A stretch of 64,000 nucleotides of DNA, taken from an uncultured Ohtaekwangia sp. GTDB lineage: Bacteria > Bacteroidota > Bacteroidia > Cytophagales > Cyclobacteriaceae. The position numbers were made by a program, and so were the translations under genes. The stretch covers positions 435 to 64,434 of the forward strand of contig CAZRQK010000009.1 in assembly GCA_964602295.1 (NCBI GenBank). Direction: 5' to 3'. Shown in pieces: positions 47,906 to 63,385 of the stretch. Under the pieces are notes generated by a model. That model had not been told where the DNA came from, did no database searches, and worked only from the letters and a program-made list of their open reading frames with translations. The number at the start of each line of letters is the position of its first letter. Within the stretch, counting starts at the first letter, position 1.

Positions 47906-47942
47906 GCTGAGAGTAGCCTTGTTTGCGGAGCAGAGTCGAAGC
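47906..47942 (+). repeat. Degenerate two-unit copy of the GCTGAGCGGAGTCGAAGC REP-like repeat
   Basis: 19-bp period, ending GCGGAGCAGAGTCGAAGC. Confidence 0.7.
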
Positions 47943-48089
47943 AAAGCATTTTTTCATTCAACGCACGCAATAGCATCTCAACGATAGGCTTTGTTCACTT
48001 ATCGATAGTGTAAAATATTTTCAGTTTCATTTGAAACAAAGAGCAAACGTTATGAGTATATTAGAAGTATAACTTAAACATAAAAAGTT

Positions 48090-49136: not shown

Positions 49137-52100
49137 TTAGTGCGTAATCACCATTCTGAATGTCTGCAACGTGGCACCACCCTCGGCAACGGTTACCACA
49201 TACACTCCGGCAGGCAGGTTGCCCGTTTCGATGTGGGCCACGCCCGTGAAGGGCAATGTTCCCTGCAACACCTCGGAACCTAAGGCATTGGCAATGGAGT
49301 AGGTGAGGTTGTTCATGCTATGCAGTATTTTGATGTGCATGTTGCCATTGGCTGGATTGGGGAACACGGCAAAGCGTTGCTCGGCTTCATCCCAGCCGGT
49401 AACTACCAGTTTCTTTACCACGATATTGGTTTGCTCTACCAGCGCTTCCACTTGCACCCTGCGCGACAGGCCGGTGCCGATAGAAATGTTGATGAATGAA
49501 GTAGGGTCCATCGGGTAGCCGGGGTATTGCAGGTTCAGCAGGTACTCGCCTTGTTCGAGGTTGTTGAACTCAAACTCACCTTCTTCATTGGTAAATATCC
49601 ACGCCACCAGTACCAATTCTTCGTCTTCTGGTTTGCCCACGTTCACCCTTCTACGTACACTGGCACCGGCATTGGCAATGCGTTTGTTACGCAGCGTTCG
49701 TCCGTCTTCTTGAATGTTGGTGTCTTCGAATACGCCTGAAATCAATCCGGTTCCTTTCGGTGTTTCGGCAGGTCTCTTCTGAATCACAATGTCTAAGTCT
49801 TCCCGGTCTTCATTTACAAATAAGGTATCGGCCTCTTCCCAATAAATGACAGATTTTAGGTAAGTAGGTAAACTGCCTATGTGTTCCACCGTATCGGCAT
49901 CACCTAAAAGCAGGTAATCATCCAGCACCACGTTGTTGAGTGAGAAGGTGCCATCGTTATTTACTGTTTGAGTACGTAGGGTATCGTAACCGCCAGAGGT
50001 GGGTATGCGCAGCAGCCGCACCAGGCCTTTGGTGATCGGTACGTTGGCCTCCTCCAGTAGTTGACCGCTGAGCGTAGCCGTAGCCAGCACCCGCTGGGGT
50101 GCAGAGCGGAGCGTAAGGTTGGGTACAGCCGGGTTGGTGATTTCCAACCGGTATTCGCCCATGTTGGTGCGATTCAATGCAGGTATTACATACACAGAGT
50201 CTGTAGCTCCCGATACAGCAGTGCCGTTGCGCAGCCACTGAAAGCGATTGCCTTCGCCTTGCACGGCAACGCCCACTTTGAAATCGGTGTTGTAGCGAAT
50301 CGAGTCGGTGCGAGCGGTGCCAAGGTCTGCCTGGTCGCGATAGTCCACTGTAAGCAGGCTGGCGTTGTTAATGAGTGAAGAGAAGTCCAGTGCATTTTCT
50401 GAAACATCCAATTCGGTAAGCGTTGTAATGGCAGTAAGATCGGGTAGGGCGGTGAGGAAGTTGCCCGACAGGTCTACAACCTGCAGGTTTTCGATGTCGG
50501 TTAAGATAGCGGGCACTTTGCCTGTAAGGTTGTTGTTCGGCAGTCGCAGTTCTGTAACCCGGTTGTTGTTCAGCGTTACGCCATGCCATGCGCCAGGTGT
50601 GAGAGGGTCAGTTGTCCAGCCGGTTTGGTTTACCCAGCTTGGCCCACCTGTAGCGTTATAGAAAGCGCGTAATGCAATCGAATCGCGTTGCAGGGAAGAG
50701 ACTTTAATGGATACCGGCCTGCCTTGCAAAGTGAGAGCCGGTGCCAGGGTGTTGGTAACGCGAAAGGTATAAACCCCTTCATCATCAAAAGAGGGGTTGA
50801 TAAGAGGATAGGTAGCACCCGTTGCTCCGGCAATGACCGTTCCATTCTTTAACCATTGGTATTGGTTGGCCGTGCCACCCACATTGGTTTCGAGCGAAGT
50901 GGACGAAGAAGTTTGCAGAAACAAGCTTTGCGCAACGCCCACGCTGTCTTGTGGAGTGTAAGTAAAGTTGGCAATACCGATGTTCGGTTCAATGTCTTCG
51001 AAGGTCAGGTGGTTGTTTTCAACTCGAAATGAAATAAGAGAGGAGAGACCACTCAAGTCTGGAAGGTCGGTGAGTTGATTCTCATGCAGAAAAATGTAGT
51101 TCAATGCAGCCAAGTCTCCGAATTCAATGGGAACTGCACCGCTGAGTTGGTTATTAAATAGACGGAGGTCAATAAGTGCTGATAAACTTCCAAGTTGCGG
51201 GGGTATGTCGCCCGTTAGTTGGTTACTATCAAGCACAAGTTGTCTAAGCGCTGCTAAATTTCCTAGTTGAGGAGGTATAGTTCCGCTTAGTTGGTTTCTC
51301 TGAAGCCAAAGGTTTATCAGGGCTGCCAAATTGCCCAGTTGAGGAGGTATGGAACCAGTTAGTTGGTTTTCCATCAGATATAAGAAGGTTAGGGCTGATA
51401 AGTTGCCGAATTCCTGAGGTATGGTGCCCGTGAGTTGGTTTTGTGCGAGATCAAGACCGGTTAACGCTGAGTTGTTGCCCAAAACTGCAGGCAGCACACC
51501 CACGAGGTTATTGTTACGCAAATTAATTGTCGTTACCCTGCCCGCGGTCACTGTCACCCCAAACCACGTCTCCACTTTACCCGTCAGCCAGTTGGTGTTG
51601 TTCGTCCAGCCGGGGCCGTTGGTGGCATTGTAAAGGGCAACCAACGCCAGCGAATCGCCCTCGTTGATCAGATTGAGATCTTGCGTTACTGAAGTAGTGC
51701 CTGTTAGCAAGGTAAGCAACGGTGCCGCTGGGTTGGTAATTTGCAGGTAGTAATCGCCCACATCGGTAAGTGCAAATGTTTTTGTGTAGGTGTTGGAGGT
51801 AGCTCCACCTATAAGCGCTGCGTCCTTAAACCACTGGTATTGGTTACCCGTGCCTCCTATGGTATAAGTAAGATTGAGCGGCTCCCCAACCGCTACGCTT
51901 TGGTTGGGCAATGCAGAAATGGTTTTTTGAGGTGCATAGGTAATGCCTGCAACACTCAGGTTGGGCTGAATGTCTTCGAAAGTGAGGTTGTTGTTGGAAA
52001 CGTTCAGAGTAGTCAGCCCTGAAATGCCACTGAAGTCCGGAACTTGCGAAAAGGAATTATTATCCAACCTCAGAAAAACTAAGTTGGAAAGGTTTGCGAA

Positions 52101-55100
52101 TTCGTTGGGTACGATTCCTGTTAATTGATTGTTGTGAATGGCAAGGTTGGCAAGGTTGGTAAGATTGCCCATGGATGTTGGCAGTGTTCCACTCAATTGA
52201 TTGGTGTTGATGTAGAGTGTTGTCAGGCCGCTTAAATTTCCAATAGAAGCGGGGATACTACCTGTAATTTGGTTGGTGTGGATGACCATAGAAGTAAGGG
52301 CGGTCAAGTTGCCTATTTCGCTTGGGAGTGTACCTGTAAGCTGGTTGTCGTGCAGAGATAGTGCCGAAACGCGATCTGACACAACGTTCACGCCAGACCA
52401 AGTGTCGATGGGCCCTGTCAACCAATTCGTCCTTGTCGCCCAACCCGGGCCGTTGGTGGCGTTGTAAAGGGCTACGAGGGCGAGTGAATCAATTTTACGT
52501 GGGCTGTTTGTAGGAGGAGTGAAGCGCAAGGCATCGTTGCTGAGCGAAAAGGAGGCCCTGTTTCTCCCGGGCAAAAAAGCCGCCAGGTAGCCACCTTGGT
52601 TTTCAATACCCTGCGTAATTAGGTCTTTATATTCGTTGCAACTGAGGCAATGCACTTCTATGTTATTCGTGGTTTCAAAAAGTTTAATTTGAAAGCTGGT
52701 GGTAGGGTTGCCTGGGTTGCAGCAGGCAGGAACATTCTCATATTCCAACACAAATTGGCGATTGGGCGCAGCACCAGTCGTTTGATATTTGATGGTGCCC
52801 CCATCTTCGGGGTTGAGGTCTGCCCAGTAGCCCGCAATGATGCCATTTACCTTATAATCATCGTCTAAAAAAGACAACTGGCCCGGATCCGGTAGTTCTT
52901 CTCCATTGCAGCAGCCATCGCGCTGATTATCGAGGAAACTGAGAAAGCCATTACTGCTGACGTAGGATTGTGTATAATTAACCCCATAGAAATTGAAGTT
53001 GAAGCCAATGGGCAAGGCAGAGGTAATACTATCATCCTCCATCAGCAAGAAGTTGGGTGCGGTAAGATTGGTATAACCAAAACTAGTGGGTTCCGCGGTA
53101 TAATTTTCGGGTACCGTGCCTGCCTGGAAAAGAAATACGGAGGCGGTGAATAACTCGTACGAAGAGACGATGGAATTGGTAATGCGCAATACATATTCTC
53201 CCGCATCGGCCGCGCTAAAGGATGGGATCGATAACTGATCGGACTCCGCACCGGGAATGGGTACATTATCTTTCAACCATTGGTATTGATTGGCCGACCC
53301 GTCCACAGAGAAGGATAGCAATTGGCTTTGGCCTGCTGTCAATTCAATTAATTGCAAGTTGCCAATTCTTCGTTGGAAACCTTCTATGTCGATCAGCAAT
53401 GGAGCGTTGGGCTCCAGGTCTTCATAGGTTAAGTGGTTGTAGTCCACATCCAGACTTGTAAGGCTGGGCAGGGCAGTAAGATCAATCAATCCAGTCAGGA
53501 GATTTTCATGCAAAGAAAGATCAGTCAGGTTTGAAAGACCGGAAAAAGAAGCCGGCAAAGTACCAATGAGTTGGTTATTATTCAGATCTAACCGGGTCAG
53601 GTTCGCAAGGTTGCCTAGTTCAGAAGGTATAGCTCCGGAGAGTCGGTTCCCGTAGAGTATAAGTTCCTGAAGTGCGGTGAGGTTACCCAAAGCAGTGGGA
53701 ATGCTTCCATCTAGTTGATTGCGTGGCAGACTGAGGTATGTGAGTGATGTCAAGTTCCCTAATTCGGTTGGAATGTTACCACTCAACTCGTTGTCTTCGA
53801 AAGACAAACTGGTAAGGTTGGTCAAATTGCCGAGCACTGGGGGTATGGTGCCTTGTAAAGAATTGGAGTAAAGCGATAAGCCAAGTAGGCTGGTAAGCGA
53901 GCCAATAGAAGTTGGAAGTGATCCTGTAAGTTGATTATCACCAAGGTCGAGGTACTGTAGTGCGGTTAGGTTACCAATTTCGGTGGGCAAAGGGCCGGAA
54001 AGATTGTTGTTAGTAAGCGATAACTGCTCTACCCTACCACCATTTACGCCAACACCATACCAGGTATCCACCGATCCAGTCAACCAGTTGGTGTTGTCCG
54101 TCCAGCCGGGGCCGTTGGTGGCGTTGTAGAGGGCTACGAGGGCGAGGGAATCAGTTTCGAGTGAAGGTTCCAAAAAGATACGCGCAATGCGGTTGCGGCC
54201 GATGCCGTTGTAGGAAAAGAAATCGCCTGCGATGATGGCTTTGTTATCGGGTGTTTGGGTGATTGAGTAAACTATGGCGTTCGAACCATCGATGCCATCC
54301 ATGGACTTAAATGAGGAATCCAATTCTCCACTGGACAGAAGTCGGGTTAAGCCTTTGTAGGGCGATGGAAAATTACCACCAGCCAGTATTTTGCCATCGG
54401 CCTGTAAACTCAAAGCCCTGACGGAAAATCCTATGGCGTCATCTATTTCTGGAACAAAAGTGGTATCAAGCGATCCATCCGCATTGAGCCGTGCAACGTA
54501 GTTTCTGGGTATGCCATTGTAATCATTGAAACTACCCCCAATCAATATTTTCCCGTCAGGCTGCACCAGAACGGATTCCACCGTACTATTTGCACCACTT
54601 CCAGGGTCGAAGCCTAGGTCCACAGAACCATCCTCGTTGAGTCGGGCAATGCGATTACGCGCAATGCCGTTGAAACTGGTAAAGCTTCCTCCAATCAATA
54701 TCTTGCCGTCAGCTTGAATACTTATTGACCTAATTTGTGAAGTGGTTCCGGTACCAGGGTCGAAAGAAGTGTCGACCGAACCATCTGAGTTAATGCGTAC
54801 GATACTATTTCGTGTGGTTCCATTGTAATTTGTGAAGATTCCGCTAATTATTATCTTTCCGTCTAGCTGAAGAGCTACAGTAGCCGCAAAATTGTTTATA
54901 CCAGTTCCAGGGTCGAAGGAAAAATCAATGGTTCCGTCTTGGTTGATGCGCGCAATATCGTTTCGGGGAACTCCGTCATAGTCAGTAAATCCACCGGCAA
55001 TAACTATTTTTCCATCGGGTTGGATTACCATTCCATTGATGAAGCCATTTACACCTGTGCCAGGAGTGAAGCCAAGATCTTGATCGCCATCCAAGTCTAA

Positions 55101-56441
55101 TCGAACAATCCCCCCAAATTGCACACCATTAAAACCGGTAAATCCACCACCTACTAAAATTTTTTGATCGGTCTGAATTGATGTGGGCCCCACTATGCGA
55201 TTGGCACCCCCAAATAGATCATTTGAAAAAGTTTCATCTAATGTACCGTCATTGTTTAAACGGGCACGGCCATGAGTGAATGTGGTGTTGAAAAGGGTAA
55301 AGTCTCCATTAATCAGAATTTTTTCATCGGGCTGAAGAAGTATGGTATAAATGGTGGAGCTTGCTCCACTATTTGGATCAAATGACGCGTCCAGTGAACC
55401 ATCTGTATTTACGCGTGCGATGCGGTTGCGGGAGGTGCCGTTGTAATTGGTAAAAAAGCCACCTATCACTACATGGCCGTTTGCTTGGAGTGCTATGGTA
55501 GACACAGTGGCGTTTGCCCCTGATCCAAGGTCGAAGGTTGAATCCAAAGTACCATCGGTATGGATGCGGGCCAGCCGTGCGCGGGCAGTTCCATTGTAAG
55601 TGGTGAATTGTCCACCGATGAGTATTTTACCGTCTGGTTGCAATATAATTGATTCAACCAAGCTGTTTGTTCCTGATCCAGGGTCAAAGGTCACATCAAG
55701 TGAGCCATTATCTTGCAGCCTTGCTATACCCTGTCTCAAGGTGCCGTTGTAATTGACGAATTGTCCTCCGATGAGAATTCTACCATCTTGTTGAATGGCA
55801 ATGGTCAAAATTGTGAAACTCGCGCCAGTCCCCGGATCGAAGGTGGTGTCGAGTGAACCATCTTGATTTAATCTTGCTACTCGGTTTCTGGGTGTACTAT
55901 TGTAAGTAGTAAATAATCCGCCAATTACAATCTTGCCATCAACCTGAATGGCTATTGAGTGTAATTGCAAGTCGGCCCCTGTTCCAGGGTCAAACGTAGG
56001 GTCCAGCGTACCATCCGCATTGAGCCGTGCAATTCGATTTCTTACAACACCATCGTACTCGGTAAAGAATCCGCCAATAAGTATTTTCCCATCAGGTTGA
56101 AGCACAAGGGCTCCAATGGAATTATTGGCCCCTAGGTTAGCAGCGAAGGTTTCATCCAGAGTCCCATCTGCATTTAGTCGTGCAATTCGATTTCGAGTTG
56201 CTCCATTGAAGGAAGTAAAGTTGCCAGAATACAATATCTTGCCGTCCGGTTGCAGTACGCTTTCTAGCACCGCTGCATTAAAGCCCATACCTTCACCGAA
56301 GCCAAGGTCTGTTGGGTTAAAAATCGGGTCATTCATACCTGCCTGGCCACGAACCTGATGCCACGAGGCAACAATGGTTAGCAACAATAGTAAAAACCTA
56401 AACAGGGAAGTTGAGAAGGAGCAGGTCTGGGTTGGTTGCAT
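49137..56441 (-). CDS. Giant T9SS-secreted protein: delta-60 beta-propeller repeats, four capped plant-type LRR + Ig modules, NIDO-like insert, T9SS CTD
   Basis: Repeated QPDGKILIGG...RLNADG.LD.TF; DSLALVALYNATNGPGW caps; LxxLxLxxNxLxGxIP; YQW.K Ig domains; FPNPA...LPAGVY CTD. Start chosen at ATG 56441. Confidence 0.92.
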   Translation of the reverse strand: MQPTQTCSFSTSLFRFLLLLLTIVASWHQVRGQAGMNDPIFNPTDLGFGEGMGFNAAVLESVLQPDGKILYSGNFTSFNGATRNRIARLNADGTLDETFAANLGANNSIGALVLQPDGKILIGGFFTEYDGVVRNRIARLNADGTLDPTFDPGTGADLQLHSIAIQVDGKIVIGGLFTTYNSTPRNRVARLNQDGSLDTTFDPGTGASFTILTIAIQQDGRILIGGQFVNYNGTLRQGIARLQDNGSLDVTFDPGSGTNSLVESIILQPDGKILIGGQFTTYNGTARARLARIHTDGTLDSTFDLGSGANATVSTIALQANGHVVIGGFFTNYNGTSRNRIARVNTDGSLDASFDPNSGASSTIYTILLQPDEKILINGDFTLFNTTFTHGRARLNNDGTLDETFSNDLFGGANRIVGPTSIQTDQKILVGGGFTGFNGVQFGGIVRLDLDGDQDLGFTPGTGVNGFINGMVIQPDGKIVIAGGFTDYDGVPRNDIARINQDGTIDFSFDPGTGINNFAATVALQLDGKIIISGIFTNYNGTTRNSIVRINSDGSVDTSFDPGTGTTSQIRSISIQADGKILIGGSFTSFNGIARNRIARLNEDGSVDLGFDPGSGANSTVESVLVQPDGKILIGGSFNDYNGIPRNYVARLNADGSLDTTFVPEIDDAIGFSVRALSLQADGKILAGGNFPSPYKGLTRLLSSGELDSSFKSMDGIDGSNAIVYSITQTPDNKAIIAGDFFSYNGIGRNRIARIFLEPSLETDSLALVALYNATNGPGWTDNTNWLTGSVDTWYGVGVNGGRVEQLSLTNNNLSGPLPTEIGNLTALQYLDLGDNQLTGSLPTSIGSLTSLLGLSLYSNSLQGTIPPVLGNLTNLTSLSFEDNELSGNIPTELGNLTSLTYLSLPRNQLDGSIPTALGNLTALQELILYGNRLSGAIPSELGNLANLTRLDLNNNQLIGTLPASFSGLSNLTDLSLHENLLTGLIDLTALPSLTSLDVDYNHLTYEDLEPNAPLLIDIEGFQRRIGNLQLIELTAGQSQLLSFSVDGSANQYQWLKDNVPIPGAESDQLSIPSFSAADAGEYVLRITNSIVSSYELFTASVFLFQAGTVPENYTAEPTSFGYTNLTAPNFLLMEDDSITSALPIGFNFNFYGVNYTQSYVSSNGFLSFLDNQRDGCCNGEELPDPGQLSFLDDDYKVNGIIAGYWADLNPEDGGTIKYQTTGAAPNRQFVLEYENVPACCNPGNPTTSFQIKLFETTNNIEVHCLSCNEYKDLITQGIENQGGYLAAFLPGRNRASFSLSNDALRFTPPTNSPRKIDSLALVALYNATNGPGWATRTNWLTGPIDTWSGVNVVSDRVSALSLHDNQLTGTLPSEIGNLTALTSMVIHTNQITGSIPASIGNLSGLTTLYINTNQLSGTLPTSMGNLTNLANLAIHNNQLTGIVPNEFANLSNLVFLRLDNNSFSQVPDFSGISGLTTLNVSNNNLTFEDIQPNLSVAGITYAPQKTISALPNQSVAVGEPLNLTYTIGGTGNQYQWFKDAALIGGATSNTYTKTFALTDVGDYYLQITNPAAPLLTLLTGTTSVTQDLNLINEGDSLALVALYNATNGPGWTNNTNWLTGKVETWFGVTVTAGRVTTINLRNNNLVGVLPAVLGNNSALTGLDLAQNQLTGTIPQEFGNLSALTFLYLMENQLTGSIPPQLGNLAALINLWLQRNQLSGTIPPQLGNLAALRQLVLDSNQLTGDIPPQLGSLSALIDLRLFNNQLSGAVPIEFGDLAALNYIFLHENQLTDLPDLSGLSSLISFRVENNHLTFEDIEPNIGIANFTYTPQDSVGVAQSLFLQTSSSTSLETNVGGTANQYQWLKNGTVIAGATGATYPLINPSFDDEGVYTFRVTNTLAPALTLQGRPVSIKVSSLQRDSIALRAFYNATGGPSWVNQTGWTTDPLTPGAWHGVTLNNNRVTELRLPNNNLTGKVPAILTDIENLQVVDLSGNFLTALPDLTAITTLTELDVSENALDFSSLINNASLLTVDYRDQADLGTARTDSIRYNTDFKVGVAVQGEGNRFQWLRNGTAVSGATDSVYVIPALNRTNMGEYRLEITNPAVPNLTLRSAPQRVLATATLSGQLLEEANVPITKGLVRLLRIPTSGGYDTLRTQTVNNDGTFSLNNVVLDDYLLLGDADTVEHIGSLPTYLKSVIYWEEADTLFVNEDREDLDIVIQKRPAETPKGTGLISGVFEDTNIQEDGRTLRNKRIANAGASVRRRVNVGKPEDEELVLVAWIFTNEEGEFEFNNLEQGEYLLNLQYPGYPMDPTSFINISIGTGLSRRVQVEALVEQTNIVVKKLVVTGWDEAEQRFAVFPNPANGNMHIKILHSMNNLTYSIANALGSEVLQGTLPFTGVAHIETGNLPAGVYVVTVAEGGATLQTFRMVITH

Positions 56442-56493
56442 AAGGGCACAAGTTTTTACTCTACTAATGTTCCAAATCAAAGTCTTGCCAATC

Positions 56494-56513
56494 AATACCT
56501 ACTTCGAGGTATT
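56494..56513. promoter_or_regulatory. Palindrome AATACC-N8-GGTATT (putative NarL/LuxR-type site)
   Basis: AATACCTACTTCGAGGTATT; the same arms occur at 63386-63405. Confidence 0.6.
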
Positions 56514-56629
56514 CGGTCCTTAACATTAACTTAACATGGAGATCTTTGGCATGTTAAAAGCTAAAGCAACGGCAACAAATCCCTCTCCCTCTTTCTGGGT
56601 ATTTTGTTTTTGTGTATTTTCCATACGCT

Positions 56630-57547
56630 ATGCAGGAGGAACCCCACATCCTTCAAATGCTCACCGTGCGCGAACTCCAGGCCCTGGAGGCGCTGCTGGG
56701 TGGGCCACAGGCCTATGCCCTGAACGGGCATGCGCGCGAACTCGAACAATCTATTCTTCGCAAAACAGGAGCGCTTACGTTGGAAGAGCTGGTGTCCACC
56801 GCGCACCGCGATCTCACGCGTTACCGCGTAAAGGAAGCAGTGAAGGCTAAGGCGGTAGATCAGTTTTTGAAAGACCCGCGGTTTCAACGTTTCCAGGTGT
56901 TTGCCCACCAAGGCATACGTATTTTAGACAACACTACCCACGAATACCTGTACGTAAACGAAGCCACAGAGCACATCATTGGCTGGACGGCCGAGGACTT
57001 TAAGAAAGGGGGCCTGCTATGGGCCCACCGCAGAACGCACCCCTGGGATTTGCTGCAACTTGTCTTGATTGCCAAACGGGTGCTTAGAAAATTCGATGGC
57101 CTTACAGAAGAGGATAAGCTCAACTCTCGGTTTTCGTTTGATTTGCGCTTCAGGCACAAGGATGGAAAGTACCGCAGAATTCAACAGCATTCGTACACCA
57201 TCAGTTTAGCCGATAACGGCAAGCCCGGACTGCTGATGATGGTGAGCGCGGATATATCTGCGCTTAAAACCGCTACCAGCATGAACTACCAGTTTGGCGT
57301 TACGCGTGGTAACCGTTTTCAGGTGTTGCTGGAGGGCCGTACCAAGGCCTTCACTAACCTGCTGAGCGAGCGCGAAACGGAGTTGTTGCATTGTGCGGCC
57401 GATGGTTTGAACGAAACGGCCATAGCTCAGCGCATGCACATCAGTGTGCAGACGGTGAAGACACACCGCAAGAATATGCTGGCAAAAACGGGTTGCAAAA
57501 ACTTTGCAGACCTGATACGCAAAGGGGTGGTAGAAGGATGGATTTGA
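56630..57547 (+). CDS. PAS-domain LuxR-family transcriptional regulator
   Basis: YVNEA..IIGW...THPWD and RFRHKDGKY PAS motifs; LSERE...IA..MHIS..TVKTHRKN HTH. Confidence 0.88.
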   Translation: MQEEPHILQMLTVRELQALEALLGGPQAYALNGHARELEQSILRKTGALTLEELVSTAHRDLTRYRVKEAVKAKAVDQFLKDPRFQRFQVFAHQGIRILDNTTHEYLYVNEATEHIIGWTAEDFKKGGLLWAHRRTHPWDLLQLVLIAKRVLRKFDGLTEEDKLNSRFSFDLRFRHKDGKYRRIQQHSYTISLADNGKPGLLMMVSADISALKTATSMNYQFGVTRGNRFQVLLEGRTKAFTNLLSERETELLHCAADGLNETAIAQRMHISVQTVKTHRKNMLAKTGCKNFADLIRKGVVEGWI

Positions 57548-57553
57548 ATGCAC

Positions 57554-57628
57554 GCTGATCGGAGTCGTGCTTGCTGAACGGAGTCGCGCTTGCTGGGCGG
57601 AGTCGTGCTTGCTGAGCGGAGTCGAAGC
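57554..57628 (+). repeat. Four tandem 19-bp REP-like units ending GCTGAGCGGAGTCGAAGC
   Basis: Units at 57554, 57573, 57592 and 57611. Confidence 0.9.
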
Positions 57629-57719
57629 AAGCTTACTGTACCAGAGTGGACGCAAACCCTTTTTAAGAGCAAGGTTAGAGAACGATGATATAGTAAATGG
57701 CTTTAATGTACCCGCCCCG

Positions 57720-59504
57720 ATGCGAAAACAAATCATGTTATTACCAGCCACACTTGCGTTGTTTTGCGCAGTGCTGACACCTTCCGTGGCCACAGGCCAG
57801 TCGCTCGACTCCGTCCGCGTCAGTCGCTACCTGGTGATGGCCAACGACTATTTACAGCGCAACCAACTCGACAGTGTGAGGTGGGCTGCCGCACGGGCGC
57901 GTGGGCTGGCCGAAAAGACCAGGCAGCCTTTGTTAAGGGCTTGGGCCGACCAGTTTATTGGTTCGTGTCATTTTTATGAGGGCAGATACGAGAAAGGTAT
58001 TGCCCTGCAGACCGAAGTGTGGCGGGTAGCCGATTCGTTGGGCGATGCGCTGCTGCGCGCCCATTCCCAAAAAATGATCGGATGGATGTACACCGAGATG
58101 GGCAAAGAGCGCGAAGCCCTCCAACTCTTCCGCGCCAGCTTGCCGGCTTTCCGCGCCAACGCTGCTCGCGATATCCAAAGAAGTATCGGCATCACGTATT
58201 TTGGGCTTGCCACCGCCTACTTCTATCTGAGCCATTTCGACTCGGCTTTGATTTACTACGACTCTGCCATTACGGCCCGACCGCAGATGGACTCGCGGGA
58301 GATGGCCTTGACGTTAGCCGACCGCGCTGCGGTGAAGCGCGACCACCTGCAGAACCTGCCAGGTGCATTGCAAGACGCCAGCCAGGCGCTTACGCTGGCG
58401 TCAACACTCGAAGGTCATCCGGATGCGGTAGCTTACATACAATCTGAATGGGCCCTCTCCCTTGCCCGAAAAGGTGATTATGCAGAAGCCGACCGTTGGG
58501 CGCAGTCGGCCTGGCGCATTTATGGTAGTTTGCCCTTTTTGAAAAGATATGTCAGCGTGTATCAGACCATGGCCCGCACCTTTGCAGAAACAAGTAACTA
58601 CCCCATGGCATACCGGGCCGAGCAAGAAGCAAGGATGCTACAAGATTCCATCCATGCAATCCGTAAAATGCAGATCGTGGAAGACCTGCGCATGCGGTAC
58701 GAAACGGAACAGAAAACCAAGGCCATCGCCCAATTGAATGAAAGGGCCAGTTGGCAAGAGTCGGTGATTGTACGCAGCAAGGCTGCCTTATGGGTGCTGG
58801 GCGCTAACTTGCTGCTATTGATTACAGGCGGCATTTGGTTTTATCGCAAGCGAGAGAAATACCACCAACGCATTCACGAATTGGAGGCGGCCCAACAATT
58901 GAGGGTGGAGAAGGAGAAGATCGCCAAAGATTTGCACGACAGCCTCGGCTCTCAGCTAAGCACCATTTCGTTCGGTTTACAACGGGCAGCAGCCGAAAAC
59001 AAAAACGAAGGGCTTCTGTCGCTACAGGCGTTGGCCGACAAGGTGATGCAGGAACTGCGCGACTTTATTTGGGCGATGAACAAGGAAACCGTTTCGGTGG
59101 AGGAGCTTGAACAGCGTATCAACACATTATTTTGGCAATACCGCAAACTCGATTACCCCGTTGCCTTCGATCTGTACGTAGAACAGCACTTGCCATCCAC
59201 GCAGTTGCCCCCTGGCACAGGCATTCAGTTGTTTCGCATTACGCAGGAGGCTGTGCAAAACGCCATCCGCCACAGCCGTTGTACATCCATCCGCGTAGGG
59301 CTTACCAATGGTAATGGGCACCTGAGGCTTACCGTAAAAGACAACGGCACTGGTTTCGACTGGCCTCCCGCTGTACCGGGCGATCATTTCGGCCTCACGA
59401 ATATGCAAAAGCGCGCCAATACAGTGAGCGGACAATTCCGCATTGATACGGCACCACAACAGGGAACCACGGTGTCGGTGGCGGTGCCGTTGGTTGCTCG
59501 TTAG
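57720..59504 (+). CDS. TPR-domain sensor histidine kinase (HisKA_3 type)
   Basis: Signal/TM segment, TPRs, KIAKDLHDSLG H-box, QEAVQNAIRHS, KDNGTGF, GLTNM. Confidence 0.92.
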   Translation: MRKQIMLLPATLALFCAVLTPSVATGQSLDSVRVSRYLVMANDYLQRNQLDSVRWAAARARGLAEKTRQPLLRAWADQFIGSCHFYEGRYEKGIALQTEVWRVADSLGDALLRAHSQKMIGWMYTEMGKEREALQLFRASLPAFRANAARDIQRSIGITYFGLATAYFYLSHFDSALIYYDSAITARPQMDSREMALTLADRAAVKRDHLQNLPGALQDASQALTLASTLEGHPDAVAYIQSEWALSLARKGDYAEADRWAQSAWRIYGSLPFLKRYVSVYQTMARTFAETSNYPMAYRAEQEARMLQDSIHAIRKMQIVEDLRMRYETEQKTKAIAQLNERASWQESVIVRSKAALWVLGANLLLLITGGIWFYRKREKYHQRIHELEAAQQLRVEKEKIAKDLHDSLGSQLSTISFGLQRAAAENKNEGLLSLQALADKVMQELRDFIWAMNKETVSVEELEQRINTLFWQYRKLDYPVAFDLYVEQHLPSTQLPPGTGIQLFRITQEAVQNAIRHSRCTSIRVGLTNGNGHLRLTVKDNGTGFDWPPAVPGDHFGLTNMQKRANTVSGQFRIDTAPQQGTTVSVAVPLVAR

Positions 59505-59537
59505 AATTAAAGAAAGGGCTCTGCGATGGGCCATCGT

Positions 59538-60182
59538 TCACAGCCACTCCTTGGTTTTGTTGATGGCTTCGATCTTATTGCGCACGTGCAGCTTCCTGAA
59601 GATATTGGAGATGTGTTTTTTTACGGTTTCATGGCTGATGAATAGCAGGGAAGCCATCGAGTGGTAGGTATGGCCCTTGGCTACCATGCGCAGAATCTCT
59701 ACCTCACGGTCGCTTAGGTTGTATTCTTCTTTTTTGCTAGCCGCTGTTACAGGCTGGTGCAGAAATTTAATGGTCTTGATGGCAATGCCGGGCGACATCA
59801 GGGCGCCTCCTTGCGACACATCAACAATGGTCTTGTAGATGAAAGACGGCTTCTCGTTTTTCAGCAGGTAACCCACCGACCCCGATTTAAAGGCTTCGAA
59901 AACATTCTCATCATCGTCCGACATGGTGAACATCACCACCTTAATATTAGGAAACTGGTCGTTGAGCAGCCGCGTGGCCTGAATGCCTTCATCGGCCAGC
60001 GACATGGAGATATCCATCAACACCACATCGGGCTGCTTGTTTTCGTAGCGTAAGTGGTGAACAAAACCCAACCCGCTGGTATACACTTTTATTTCTGCGA
60101 TGTCGGGATAGTCTTCTAACTCCCGCTTCAACGTTTTGCCCAACTGCTGGTCATCGTCTATAATGGCGACTTGGATCGACAT
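59538..60182 (-). CDS. NarL/FixJ-family response regulator
   Basis: IIDDD, VLMDI, GYLLK receiver domain; LSDRE...TVKKHISNIFRKL HTH. True start is likely 60182. Confidence 0.93.
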   Translation of the reverse strand: MSIQVAIIDDDQQLGKTLKRELEDYPDIAEIKVYTSGLGFVHHLRYENKQPDVVLMDISMSLADEGIQATRLLNDQFPNIKVVMFTMSDDDENVFEAFKSGSVGYLLKNEKPSFIYKTIVDVSQGGALMSPGIAIKTIKFLHQPVTAASKKEEYNLSDREVEILRMVAKGHTYHSMASLLFISHETVKKHISNIFRKLHVRNKIEAINKTKEWL

Positions 60183-60290
60183 GATAGAGGAAAGGTACGT
60201 CTGCCATGGCCGAAAAGCAATTACCCGAAAGGGGTAAGTGGGTAGTGGAAAAGCACGATTCTTCGATGGGTGAGTGTTTTGCCATGCATC

Positions 60291-60353
60291 CGTGTTTGCT
60301 GAGCGGAGTCGTGTTTGCTGAGCGGAGTCGTGTTTGCTGAGCGGAGTCGAAGC
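60291..60353 (+). repeat. Three tandem 19-bp REP-like units (left flank of the GIY-YIG gene)
   Basis: (GCTGAGCGGAGTCGTGTTT)x2 followed by GCTGAGCGGAGTCGAAGC. Confidence 0.9.
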
Positions 60354-60404
60354 AAAGATTTTCAGTCGAAGCAATATCCAACACATTTACGATATTACAC
60401 TACG

Positions 60405-60782
60405 ATGAAAGGCTGGATGTATATTTTAGAATGCGCCAATGGGCAGTATTACACCGGGAGTACCAACAATTTGAAATTACGTATAGAACAGCATCAACGT
60501 GGAGAAGGGGCTAATTTCACCAAAAAGCATTTACCCGTTAAGCTGGTTTATTTTGAAGAGTTTCCCCGTGTTCAACAAGCGTTCTATCGGGAGAAGCAGG
60601 TGCAGGGTTGGAGCCGGAAAAAGAAGGAAGCATTGATTTATGGGTTGAAGGACAGGCTTCGTGATCTGGCAACATGCAAGAATGAGACTAATTATAGGAA
60701 TGCGCCCTTCGACTTCGCTCAGGGCGCTCCTTCCGACTCTGTTCAGGGCGCTCCTTTTAACATCTCTCAGGATGCGCCTTAG
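60405..60782 (+). CDS. Small GIY-YIG nuclease (UPF0213/YhbQ-like) with a repeat-encoded tail
   Basis: WMYILEC..GQYYTGST.NL..R...H, REKQVQGWSRKKK; tail PFDFAQGAPSDSVQGAP is translated repeat. Confidence 0.9.
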   Translation: MKGWMYILECANGQYYTGSTNNLKLRIEQHQRGEGANFTKKHLPVKLVYFEEFPRVQQAFYREKQVQGWSRKKKEALIYGLKDRLRDLATCKNETNYRNAPFDFAQGAPSDSVQGAPFNISQDAP

Positions 60783-60822
60783 GTTGCTGAGCGGAGTTGC
60801 CCCAGCTGAGCGGAGTTGAAGC
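60702..60822. repeat. Right-flank REP-like cluster: three inverted 24-bp units plus two direct units
   Basis: CCCTTCGACTTCGCTCAGGG and two decayed copies, then GCTGAGCGGAGTTG twice. Confidence 0.8.
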
Positions 60823-60892
60823 GGAAGCGAAACAAGAAAGGCCACCTTTTTCCGGTAGCCTCTCTTTCTAATAGCTTCGTTTGCAACTGCCT

Positions 60893-63319
60893 TTAGTGTG
60901 TAATCACAATTCTAAATGTTTGCAATGTCGCGCCAGACTCAGCCACTGTTACCACATACACCCCCGCTGGCAGGTTGCCCGTTTCGATGTGGGCCACGCC
61001 CGTGAAGGGCAGTGTTCCTTGCAACACCTCGGCACCTACGGCATTCGCAATGGAGTAGGTGAGGTTGTTCATACCTTGCTGTACTTTAATGTGCATGTTG
61101 GCATTGGCCGGATTGGGGAATACAGCAAAACGTTGCTCCTCTTCATCCCACCCGGTAATCACTAGTTTCTTTACTACAATATTGGCTTCCTCCACCAACG
61201 CCTGCACTTCCACTCTGCGCGCCAGACCTGTGCCAATGGAAATGTTGATGAATGAAGTAGGATCCATCGGGTAGCCAGGATATTGCAGGTTCAGAAGATA
61301 CTCGCCTGTTTCCAGGTTTTCGAAGCTGAACTCACCATCTTCATTCGTAAGGATGTAAGCCACCAGCACCAGTTCTTCGTCTTCGGGTTTGCCCACGTTT
61401 ACCCTTCTACGCACGCTGGCACCTGCGTTAGAAATTCTTTTGTTTCGCAATGTACGGCCGTCCTCCTGTATGTTGGTATCTTCCAATGTTCCCGAGATTG
61501 TGCCCTGCCCTTTGGGCTCCTCTACAGGTTTGTTCACCAGCGTAATGTTTAGATCTGCTACATTATCGTTCAGAATAATAGGGTCTGCTTCTTCCCAGAA
61601 AATTTTGTCGGTATAGTAGGTAGGGATTTCATCTGGATATTGAACGGGGTTACCTTGCGCCAACAGCACATAGTCGTCTAACACTACTTTCTCCAACGTG
61701 TAGGTACCATCGGCATTCACGGTCAGATTGCCAAGGCCCTCCGGAATTTCGTAAGCACCCACGTCAGTAATTCGGTATAGGGTTACCACACCGTTGGCCA
61801 GCGGCACATCGGTGTTTTCAAATATGGTTCCTGAAACGGTGGCGGTAGCCAGCACGCGTTTATTACCCGATTGCAAAGTGAGTCCTGGTACAGCGGGATT
61901 GGTGATGTCTACGCGATAGGTGCCCATGTTGGTTCGGTTGATGGCTGTGATGCCATAAGCCGGGGCGTTGGCGCCCTCTACGTTCGTTCCGTTCAGCGTC
62001 CATTGATAAAGGTTGCCTTCATGGTCGGCTTCTATTTCCACGGAAGTGTCGGTGCCCACGTCTACCAGCACTTCTTCATCTGGTGTGCGGGGCTGTTGGT
62101 TGCTGTAGTCGAAAGAGGGGAGGCCCAGGTTGGGGATGATGGAACCAAAGCCCAACCGGTTGTTCGACACGTTCAGTGAAGCAATACCGCTCAAGCCGGA
62201 GAGATCGGGCAGATAGGTAATGTTGTTTCCCGACAAATCGATGGTTTCTAATCCTCCCAGGTCGGCCAACGACTCAGGCAGGCGACCTGTAATGCCCGTA
62301 TTGGGCAACACCAGCGAAGTAACATAACCGCCTGTTTCGGTTACGCCCTCCCAGGTGGTAACATCGGTGTTGGTAAGCCACGTGGGCTTGCCCGTCCAGG
62401 TGCCTGCGGTAGGCTGGGTGGCGTTGTACAATGCTTCCAGTGCCAGGCGGTCGGTTTCCAGGTTGCCAGGGAAACCACGCGCTACGGAGTAAGTGCCATC
62501 CAGTCCGCGGGAATAGCTGCGCACCAGTGTCTTCCCATCAGCTATGTTGATCAGGCGTGCACCCATGCCCTGATAGGTATCGGCACTGATTTGCCGCACT
62601 ACTATGGGGTTGGTTACGCCCGAAGTCAGCGCTTCGGGGTACTCCACCTCTACGTAGCTACTCGCTTCGGTGCCGGTCTCCTTGGTTACTCGCCATATGT
62701 AGGGGAAATCGATCAACGCTTCCACACCAGTGCCAGCCGTGAAGCCAGTGGGGGCGTCTTCCAACGCCACGGTTACGCTTGGATTGGCACCCGACACGCT
62801 GTAGATAGTGATGGGCAGGTAGTTACCGCCACGGCCTACAGGGAAGAACAGGTTGCCGCTGCCTTTGCGCACCAGGTTGCCGCCCTGCAAAAAAGAGCCG
62901 GGGGTACTTTCAACTTTCGCCAGGTCGTTGATGGTGAGCACGTCAGACGCAGTGAGAGGCGTAAGCAAGCCGCCTTTCAGCGAAAGACTATCGCGGAGTT
63001 CGAACACACCCGTGATGTCGGCATTGCCAACACCTTCCTTCACAATGAAGCCAAATGAAGCGCCTCCGGGCGTAAACGATTTGTTGGTGGCATAGTTCAG
63101 CACAAATCCCCCTGTGCTGGCCGCATCGAGCGTGCCTGTGTTCGTCCAGCTATCCGTGGTAACGATGGTGCCATCGTTGCGCAGGCTGCCTTGGTTGGCC
63201 CAATCGCCATTGGTGTAGATCACGCCTGTGTTCACGATGTCGATACCCGTGTTGGTGATGAACTGGGCGTGGGTAACCACAGCCATTAGGACGAAGAGGG
63301 GAAATAAAATATTTCTCAT
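60893..63319 (-). CDS. T9SS-secreted LRR/Ig protein, paralog of the giant protein's C-terminal module
   Basis: Signal peptide MRNILF..., FPVG motif, capped LRR, Ig domain, and a CTD nearly identical to that of the 49137 gene. Confidence 0.9.
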   Translation of the reverse strand: MRNILFPLFVLMAVVTHAQFITNTGIDIVNTGVIYTNGDWANQGSLRNDGTIVTTDSWTNTGTLDAASTGGFVLNYATNKSFTPGGASFGFIVKEGVGNADITGVFELRDSLSLKGGLLTPLTASDVLTINDLAKVESTPGSFLQGGNLVRKGSGNLFFPVGRGGNYLPITIYSVSGANPSVTVALEDAPTGFTAGTGVEALIDFPYIWRVTKETGTEASSYVEVEYPEALTSGVTNPIVVRQISADTYQGMGARLINIADGKTLVRSYSRGLDGTYSVARGFPGNLETDRLALEALYNATQPTAGTWTGKPTWLTNTDVTTWEGVTETGGYVTSLVLPNTGITGRLPESLADLGGLETIDLSGNNITYLPDLSGLSGIASLNVSNNRLGFGSIIPNLGLPSFDYSNQQPRTPDEEVLVDVGTDTSVEIEADHEGNLYQWTLNGTNVEGANAPAYGITAINRTNMGTYRVDITNPAVPGLTLQSGNKRVLATATVSGTIFENTDVPLANGVVTLYRITDVGAYEIPEGLGNLTVNADGTYTLEKVVLDDYVLLAQGNPVQYPDEIPTYYTDKIFWEEADPIILNDNVADLNITLVNKPVEEPKGQGTISGTLEDTNIQEDGRTLRNKRISNAGASVRRRVNVGKPEDEELVLVAYILTNEDGEFSFENLETGEYLLNLQYPGYPMDPTSFINISIGTGLARRVEVQALVEEANIVVKKLVITGWDEEEQRFAVFPNPANANMHIKVQQGMNNLTYSIANAVGAEVLQGTLPFTGVAHIETGNLPAGVYVVTVAESGATLQTFRIVITH

Positions 63320-63385
63320 AATGATACAATTCAACTTTTCTGAAGTTAGAAGCGCCTTAATTTCAATCTATTTGAGGGCTTTCCC

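Follow-up and report, generated by a model that had tools for sequence, protein, structure and literature searches.

The described systems closest to the locus reported here are the Ssn nucleases (cd10448). SsnA, a GIY-YIG enzyme, is reported to bind and cut single-stranded DNA (ssDNA) beside a flanking hairpin, in one orientation only, and to be inactive on dsDNA and RNA (PMC11893778). The layout of Ssn loci was likened by Chenal et al. (Nat Commun 2025; PMC11893778) to that of IS200/IS605 and REP-associated transposases, and a GIY-YIG nuclease cutting its own hairpin repeat in the position of a RAYT is thereby already published, as Ssn/SRM. A 2026 preprint (10.64898/2026.09.22.753630) uses SsnA loci merely as a benchmark, and its available text does not contain 'GIY'. 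In RAYT/REP (REPIN) systems, too, a single enzyme gene is surrounded by arrays of the hairpin that belongs to it, with inverted dimers and gene-less copies; the enzyme is an HUH/Y1 transposase, the repeats are GTAG-tagged and of high copy number, and RAYTs are described as mostly vertical. The CGTC-tagged REP families (Di Nocera et al. 2013, PMC3733652) are reported as short hairpins, also present in Bacteroidetes, which have no associated transposase; the text of that paper, as distinct from its consensus figure, contains neither 'GIY' nor 'TGAGCG'. The UPF0213/YhbQ and prokaryotic Slx1-like proteins (PDB 1zg2, 1ywl; PMC1564403), minimal GIY-YIG proteins, provide the closest solved sequence and fold.

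The locus lies in a stretch of 64,000 nucleotides analysed as a whole (the window). It shares with Ssn loci a single-domain GIY-YIG protein of about 100 aa, oriented flanking hairpins and free copies elsewhere. We read it, with a probability of about 0.65, as a nuclease-plus-hairpin cassette in which a small GIY-YIG enzyme would bind and nick ssDNA at its own oriented hairpin, Ssn-like but on a separate branch.

A small GIY-YIG gene between hairpin arrays

GIY-YIG is the sole Pfam domain of the gene product (Table 1), whose catalytic core extends to about residue 79 and is followed by a C-x-N-E-T tail at about residues 85-98. The last ~25 codons of the ORF are translated hairpin repeats, ending at the stop codon at 60780-60782. 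An earlier note on this DNA had proposed that a small GIY-YIG gene is bracketed by REP-like arrays, the reverse-complement repeat of the right flank being fused into its tail; both points hold, with hairpin arrays on either side of the ORF and a complete minus-strand hairpin in frame at its end. Residues Y6, Y16, G18, R26 and E63 are invariant in 31/31 aligned homologues, and the catalytic Y6, Y16 and E63 line up with those of an SsnA homologue. The protein thus agrees with the definition of Ssn proteins in having a single GIY-YIG domain, fewer than 150 aa and the two Tyr and one Glu of the catalytic site. The AF2 model of the 125-aa protein (pLDDT 84.9, low at residues 91-99) matched UPF0213 1zg2 first (Foldseek 1.3e-6) and Slx1 next, and the same 1zg2 was the best match in a sequence search of the PDB (E 5e-14); a search of NCBIfam gave a sub-threshold intron endonuclease match only. 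The dN/dS ratio against the homologue L001 was 0.055, a rough estimate on 57 synonymous sites. Purifying selection acts on the gene, and its catalytic residues are kept.

The GC content of the gene is 0.43, against 0.49-0.55 for its neighbours, a divergent response regulator gene and a convergent gene for a T9SS-secreted protein, just past whose terminator-like site the GIY-YIG gene is placed. Its orientation against both neighbours agrees with the earlier note. Beyond the terminator-like site, relatives diverge from each other.

Table 1. Positions of the cassette, the gene-less copies and the adjoining terminator-like site in the window
Feature	Positions	Strand	Remarks
Gene-less decayed single copy	47921..47946	+	
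Gene-less array	57554..57632	+	Four units: three partial 19-nt, one complete hairpin
Left array	60291..60356	+	Three 19-nt tandem units: 60291-60309, 60310-60328, 60329-60356
GIY-YIG nuclease gene	60405..60782	+	125 aa, single domain, Pfam PF01541 E 6e-18
Complete hairpin	60702..60727	-	In frame within ORF tail; first half of downstream inverted dimer
Two decayed 24-nt tandem copies of minus-strand hairpin	60726..60773	-	
Two decayed plus-strand copies, 19 nt apart	60783..60824	+	Second half of downstream inverted dimer
Terminator-like site of convergent T9SS-protein gene	60834..60866	-	Right edge of cassette site, outside cassette

The hairpin unit and its copies

The left array contains a single complete hairpin (60332-60356), its first two units being partial and consisting of the 5' arm and the loop. 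These 19-nt partial units restart at a CG common to the 5' flank and the CGAA arm, a pattern that would fit slippage. On the right, the last plus-strand copy has one change in the core. A simple pair of terminal inverted repeats does not describe the layout, the right flank forming an inverted (-,+) dimer of its own. Gene-less copies, also claimed in the earlier note, are found in the window as one array of four units, with 91% identity to the left array over 65 nt, and one decayed copy. With up to one mismatch allowed, the 12-mer core GCTGAGCGGAGT is found at 11 places in the window, where 0.29 would be expected (maximum among shuffles 2), and nine of these copies fall in the two arrays. Only five complete hairpins are present in the 4.44 Mb of the genome (assembly 90% complete), and the repeat is therefore rare here, below REP-like abundance. 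A search of positions 56400-61200 gave no match in Rfam.

A scan of genome contigs for homologues confirmed at least 555 relatives among at least 602 candidate stretches, the best 80 of which (67-93% identity) were kept. These are mostly from Bacteroidota, the others from Ignavibacteriota, Chloroflexota, Calditrichota, Cloacimonadota, Thermodesulfobacteriota, Planctomycetota, Pseudomonadota and Spirochaetota. Of these 80 best homologues of at least 555, 78 have the core TGAG-N5/6-CGAA at a distance of 500 bp or less (shuffled flanks: mean 3.9, maximum 7), so that the enrichment of the repeat around homologues, which the earlier note had named as a check, is present; the core was seen upstream of 49, downstream of 76 and on both sides of 47. 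Its density is 3.1-5.4 per kb adjoining the gene versus 0.1-0.5 per kb further out.

In 314 distinct hairpins, stem positions 1-5 are paired in 96/89/91/81/72% of cases, where base frequencies would give 57/40/43/56/38%, and a G six bases upstream (-6), with 92% conservation, shows no covariation with its partner. The repeat unit can therefore be described as an oriented hairpin in which a conserved TGAG-loop-CGAA cap closes a stem of 5-6 bp that varies through compensatory changes and is preceded by a conserved G. Three main loop classes can be distinguished: CGNAGY, to which this locus belongs, CYTGT and GYHCT. The first contains GCGNAGC, reported as a very stable DNA mini-hairpin (PMC13037366), when the last loop position is C. 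ViennaRNA with DNA parameters gave similar energies for both strands and did not resolve the cap, non-canonical pairs being outside the model of the program. The downstream arrays begin with a minus copy at 59/76 loci and end with a plus copy at 59/76, and the upstream and downstream loop classes agree at 38 of 43 loci. The ORF runs into the first downstream hairpin at 38/77 loci. In the homologues L115, L264 and L265 the frame continues for 590 to more than 900 codons, through translated hairpins into downstream sequence, apparently as fusions.

The C-terminal tail and the hairpin loop

Tail and loop types were compared at 97 loci of the clade, in classes defined after the data had been seen and with 9 rows unclassified. 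A C-x-N-x-T/S tail goes with a CGNAGY loop in 52/54 cases (one other class, one none), an A-Y-R-D tail with a GYHCT loop in 14/14, and an S-K tail with a CYTGT loop in 12/20 (3 GYHCT, 5 none); two of the three S-K/GYHCT rows really have an A-Y/H-R-D tail. Three tail-loop pairs were thus seen. At 45 further loci the matching loop accompanied the C-x-N tail in 14/14 cases and other tails in 1/31. Thirty-four of these, mostly from a sister branch, had been inspected by eye before the test, the loop pattern being slightly widened (C-x-N tail 12/12, other tails 1/22), and the remaining 11, fresh loci from the genus, gave 2/2 versus 0/9 for the matching pair. That tail type predicts loop type is new here, as is the enrichment of free hairpins in gene-carrying genomes (see below).

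On a tree built from the catalytic core only, loop class requires 25 changes versus 29.1 with shuffled labels and is barely clustered; the loop therefore tracks the tail more than the core. A distance of just tens of bases separates the codons of the tail from the downstream hairpin, and at 5/5 loci whose flanks differ (of 43) the tail follows the downstream class, so physical linkage alone could produce the match. In a test of tail against loop on independent pairs, supported branches supplied no more than 2 and 1 pairs. A C-terminal tail of 15-20 residues may read the loop.

Comparison with Ssn nucleases and weighing of alternatives

For Ssn, the cut-off set with an N. meningitidis query is E<1e-10 in tblastn, with more than 75% of the query covered (PMC11893778). 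With the N. gonorrhoeae SsnA homologue as query (L254, which has 7 NTS matches nearby and 36% identity to the product described here), the gene was found at 1.29e-8 and misses this value, and two Ssn-type genes of the same genome, at 9e-19 and 6e-17, pass. The SRM pattern had no match in the flanks of the 80 best homologues of at least 555 or at this locus; it matched at L254, L255, L257, L245 and L238. Whereas the Ssn hairpin is described by the SRM pattern with its GTC tag (PMC11893778), that of this clade has a single conserved G, the TGAG-loop-CGAA cap and a stem that varies. Among 271 clade hairpins, none has a GTC tag at 2-3 bases ahead of the core. The gene product also lacks the Ssn-type N-P-x-W-x-D-L ending and has one of the three loop-tracking tails.

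A maximum-likelihood tree of 58 rows and 98 columns separated Ssn (support 100/98), UPF0213/YhbQ (100/99), a sister branch (97/93) and this clade (99/93). The rows were picked from an earlier 117-row tree, which gave the same four groups and contained one third of L001-L080; both trees were built without L131 (a broken gene) and the duplicate L102. The gene groups outside Ssn, nearer UPF0213/Slx1-like proteins, although joining the gene or the clade to Ssn was unrejected in AU tests on the 98 columns (p 0.15 and 0.199). Supplementary Data 4 of PMC11893778 lists two species with this clade, matched by species name only, as NO for an SsnA homologue, NO for strict cd10448 (CDD score >100) and YES for loose cd10448. 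We do not file the gene as Ssn, yet it most likely works like one. The text of the open literature searched gave no description of the clade or of its hairpin; Fig. 5a of PMC11893778 may show hairpins on other branches.

The gene could be simply a divergent Ssn member, with an SRM variant outside the published pattern. Such a reading would accommodate the 36% identity, the unrejected AU tests, the loose cd10448 assignment and the TGAG...CGAA core that also appears in a GTC-tagged hairpin pair at an Ssn-type gene of this genome. It sits badly, however, with the tblastn value, with an Ssn group that forms one side of a 100/98 branch without this gene, with the SRM pattern at 0/80 flanks and with the two NO entries for both species, and we consider it quite unlikely. 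More, though still little, can be said for a structure-selective Slx1/UPF0213-like nuclease, or a mere binder, whose hairpins would be RNA or regulatory elements linked to the gene. The closest solved structures are indeed UPF0213 proteins and Slx1, the tail follows the nearest hairpin, and hairpins are denser downstream, usually as an inverted pair with the minus copy first, as in transcript-stabilising REPs. Yet hairpins are also upstream at 49/80 of the best loci, with flank classes in agreement at 38/43, the tail-loop pairing repeats in the sister branch with a different 5' tag, Rfam gave no match around the locus, and SsnA is reported to be inactive on RNA (PMC11893778). This explanation is unlikely.

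Three Y1_Tnp (Y1/RAYT-type) loci in the genome, together with genomes that are rich in hairpins and lack this gene, might point to a RAYT or other HUH transposase as the agent spreading the hairpins, the GIY-YIG gene being captured cargo. No hairpin core was found within ~1.5 kb of any of the three, and therefore a RAYT elsewhere, which the earlier note had considered, does not explain the cassette. Besides, the hairpin has no GTAG tag (none in the profile of 314), a loop-matched tail across branches is unexpected of cargo, and CGTC-type repeats are reported without association with a transposase gene (PMC3733652), all of which makes this very unlikely. That the gene encodes a UPF0213/YhbQ repair nuclease with a housekeeping role, fixed in place and adjoined by repeats by chance, is largely refuted and has the lowest probability of all. 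The best PDB match is UPF0213, the site is common to one same-genus relative and selection is purifying, but the clade is carried by only 5/120 other genomes of the genus at E<1e-30, its neighbours differ widely, and the repeat found at 78/80 of the best homologues is absent from the housekeeping-type loci (0/9), a branch to themselves, in contrast to the patchy and hairpin-flanked clade studied here. Fixation in synteny, the other alternative raised in the earlier note, was likewise not seen, the gene occurring in many contexts.

Distribution and history at the site

The gene was matched at E<1e-25 in 21 of 300 Bacteroidota genomes. At least four G-tagged CGNAGY hairpins were counted in 11/21 genomes with the gene versus 8/279 without (flanking copies being counted and related genomes not independent, so that Fisher p-values come out too strong), and at least ten in 8 of 21 versus 6 of 279. 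The eight genomes without a detected gene of the clade hold up to 93 hairpins. The shorter core alone is commoner (145/301 genomes), which is likely due to GTC-tagged forms having the same core. Restriction-modification genes adjoin 13 of 37 loci, the rest being varied (60/144 neighbour ORFs scanned). In viral contigs, four loci at ~40% identity were seen and no member of the clade.

A genome of the same genus (G415) has the cassette beside the same T9SS gene (84% and 83% DNA identity) with a different left neighbour, the similarity on that side ending at the left hairpin. Another genome (G426), whose T9SS gene is 95% identical in DNA to that of G415, shows no gene or hairpins after the terminator, where different DNA follows; this makes it an allele without the cassette rather than a clean empty site. 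Since G415 has the cassette at the same site, with a divergence similar to that of the neighbour gene, the cassette is old here, with no recent insertion, and was likely lost or replaced in G426. Of the empty sites in relatives that the earlier note had suggested looking for, no clean one appeared in the relatives compared, this allele being all that was found; a joint skipping the cassette was not seen in the contigs of 4 DNA runs from 1 study, and a metagenome scan with the response regulator returned only relatives at ≤63% identity. No target-site duplication is present at this locus. Flank duplications are rare among homologues, with 2 clear of 69, and 4/40 at p<=0.01 in a second test, 2 of them convincing by eye. 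At L010, L075, L022 and L080, a flanking stretch of 36-50 bp is duplicated on the two sides of the cassette, which may record the mode of insertion.

The two hairpin arrays of the window bound a kinase and response-regulator pair (57554-60356). The gene order is LuxR> HK> <RR here and LuxR> RR> <HK in the distant relatives L275 and L135 (~60% protein identity); an inversion of the pair that broke close to the arrays may account for this. A simple inversion by homologous recombination is at odds with the direct orientation of the two arrays.

Proposed mechanism and its implications

Under the preferred reading, that of a nuclease-plus-hairpin cassette, the cap would fold on one strand only, through tandem G.A pairs and, in the CGNAGY class, a GCGNAGC-type mini-hairpin, so that the substrate would be ssDNA, presumably exposed in replication, recombination or DNA uptake. 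Such strand-specific folding would rest on non-canonical pairs, which are outside the model of the folding program. The C-terminal tail of 15-20 residues would read the loop, and the tail would be exchanged together with the downstream hairpin as a module. Nicks at the hairpins would promote recombination and slippage; these host processes could then give rise to free copies, multiply partial units to form tandem arrays and carry the cassette to other sites and phyla, with no dedicated transposase.

A GIY-YIG enzyme is a hydrolase, of which no strand-transfer chemistry is expected; for this reason the movement is assigned to host recombination and slippage. One difference from RAYT/REP lies here, as the enzyme of the latter is an HUH/Y1 transposase. 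The inverted hairpin dimers flanking the gene and the free copies are RAYT-like traits of the clade, but its hairpin is not GTAG-tagged and has 5 complete copies in this genome, up to 93 in others, against the high copy number of REPs, and the homologues are 67-93% identical across phyla, against mostly vertical RAYTs. The earlier note had presented the locus as a RAYT/REPIN analogue with a different enzyme. This stands insofar as homologues carry the repeat and free copies are enriched with the gene; as a new idea it does not, Ssn/SRM having been published in 2025 (PMC11893778).

A wider view, which we put forward tentatively and regard as somewhat doubtful, is that the clade could represent a second widespread, non-Ssn family of small GIY-YIG hairpin-specific ssDNA nucleases, with a swappable loop-reading tail of 15-20 residues that recombines as a module with the adjacent hairpin, nicking at hairpins spreading cassette and free repeats without a transposase. 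In general terms the concept has already been published, and recent movement is not apparent for this copy. The cassette would nevertheless extend the nuclease-plus-hairpin principle beyond one published family and offer a candidate enzyme for a common, apparently undescribed Bacteroidota repeat, and it bears on the spread of transposase-less REP-like repeats. The tail-loop match makes hairpin recognition by a 100-residue single-domain nuclease experimentally approachable; if the tail does read the loop, ssDNA cutters with new specificities could follow.

Other GIY-YIG, repeat and paralogous loci

The small non-Ssn GIY-YIG genes of the sister branch (L127, L198-L200, L203, L208-L210, L212, L213, L217, L223, L225, L241, L266-L272) often have hairpins with a GTCA tag; their core and the pairing of tail and loop are those of the present clade. 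These hairpins recall the CGTC-tagged REPs (PMC3733652), whose tag at that register is absent from 271/271 hairpins of the clade studied here. The sister branch is a further putative hairpin-nuclease group overlooked by the SRM pattern.

In the genome of this locus, one Ssn-type GIY-YIG gene (L194, G000:C24:42300-44000) lies between an inverted pair of CGTC-tagged hairpins, which have the TGAG...CGAA core in common with this clade and are outside the published SRM pattern; about 11 CGTC-tagged relatives of these hairpins, with a CTGAGCGTTAGCGAAG-type core, are found elsewhere in the genome. The second Ssn-type gene (L195, G000:C70:5500-7200) has other GTC-tagged hairpin types on both sides. 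A fourth small GIY-YIG gene (L196, G000:C27:59500-60776) is located among tRNA-like fragments that hold inserted TCCCGC...GCGGGA hairpins; ARAGORN calls no tRNA there and an assembly gap lies upstream. Another repeat, CCCACCACTCGAAGTGGTGGG with tandem GGTGGGACGACT, comes after the Y1_Tnp gene of L259 (G000:C1:253793-257134), and the two may constitute a separate RAYT-type element. Finally, positions 49137-56495 and 60893-63334 of the window encode paralogous T9SS-secreted LRR proteins, with ~80-86% DNA identity at their 3' ends, and a third paralogue is present on contig C30.
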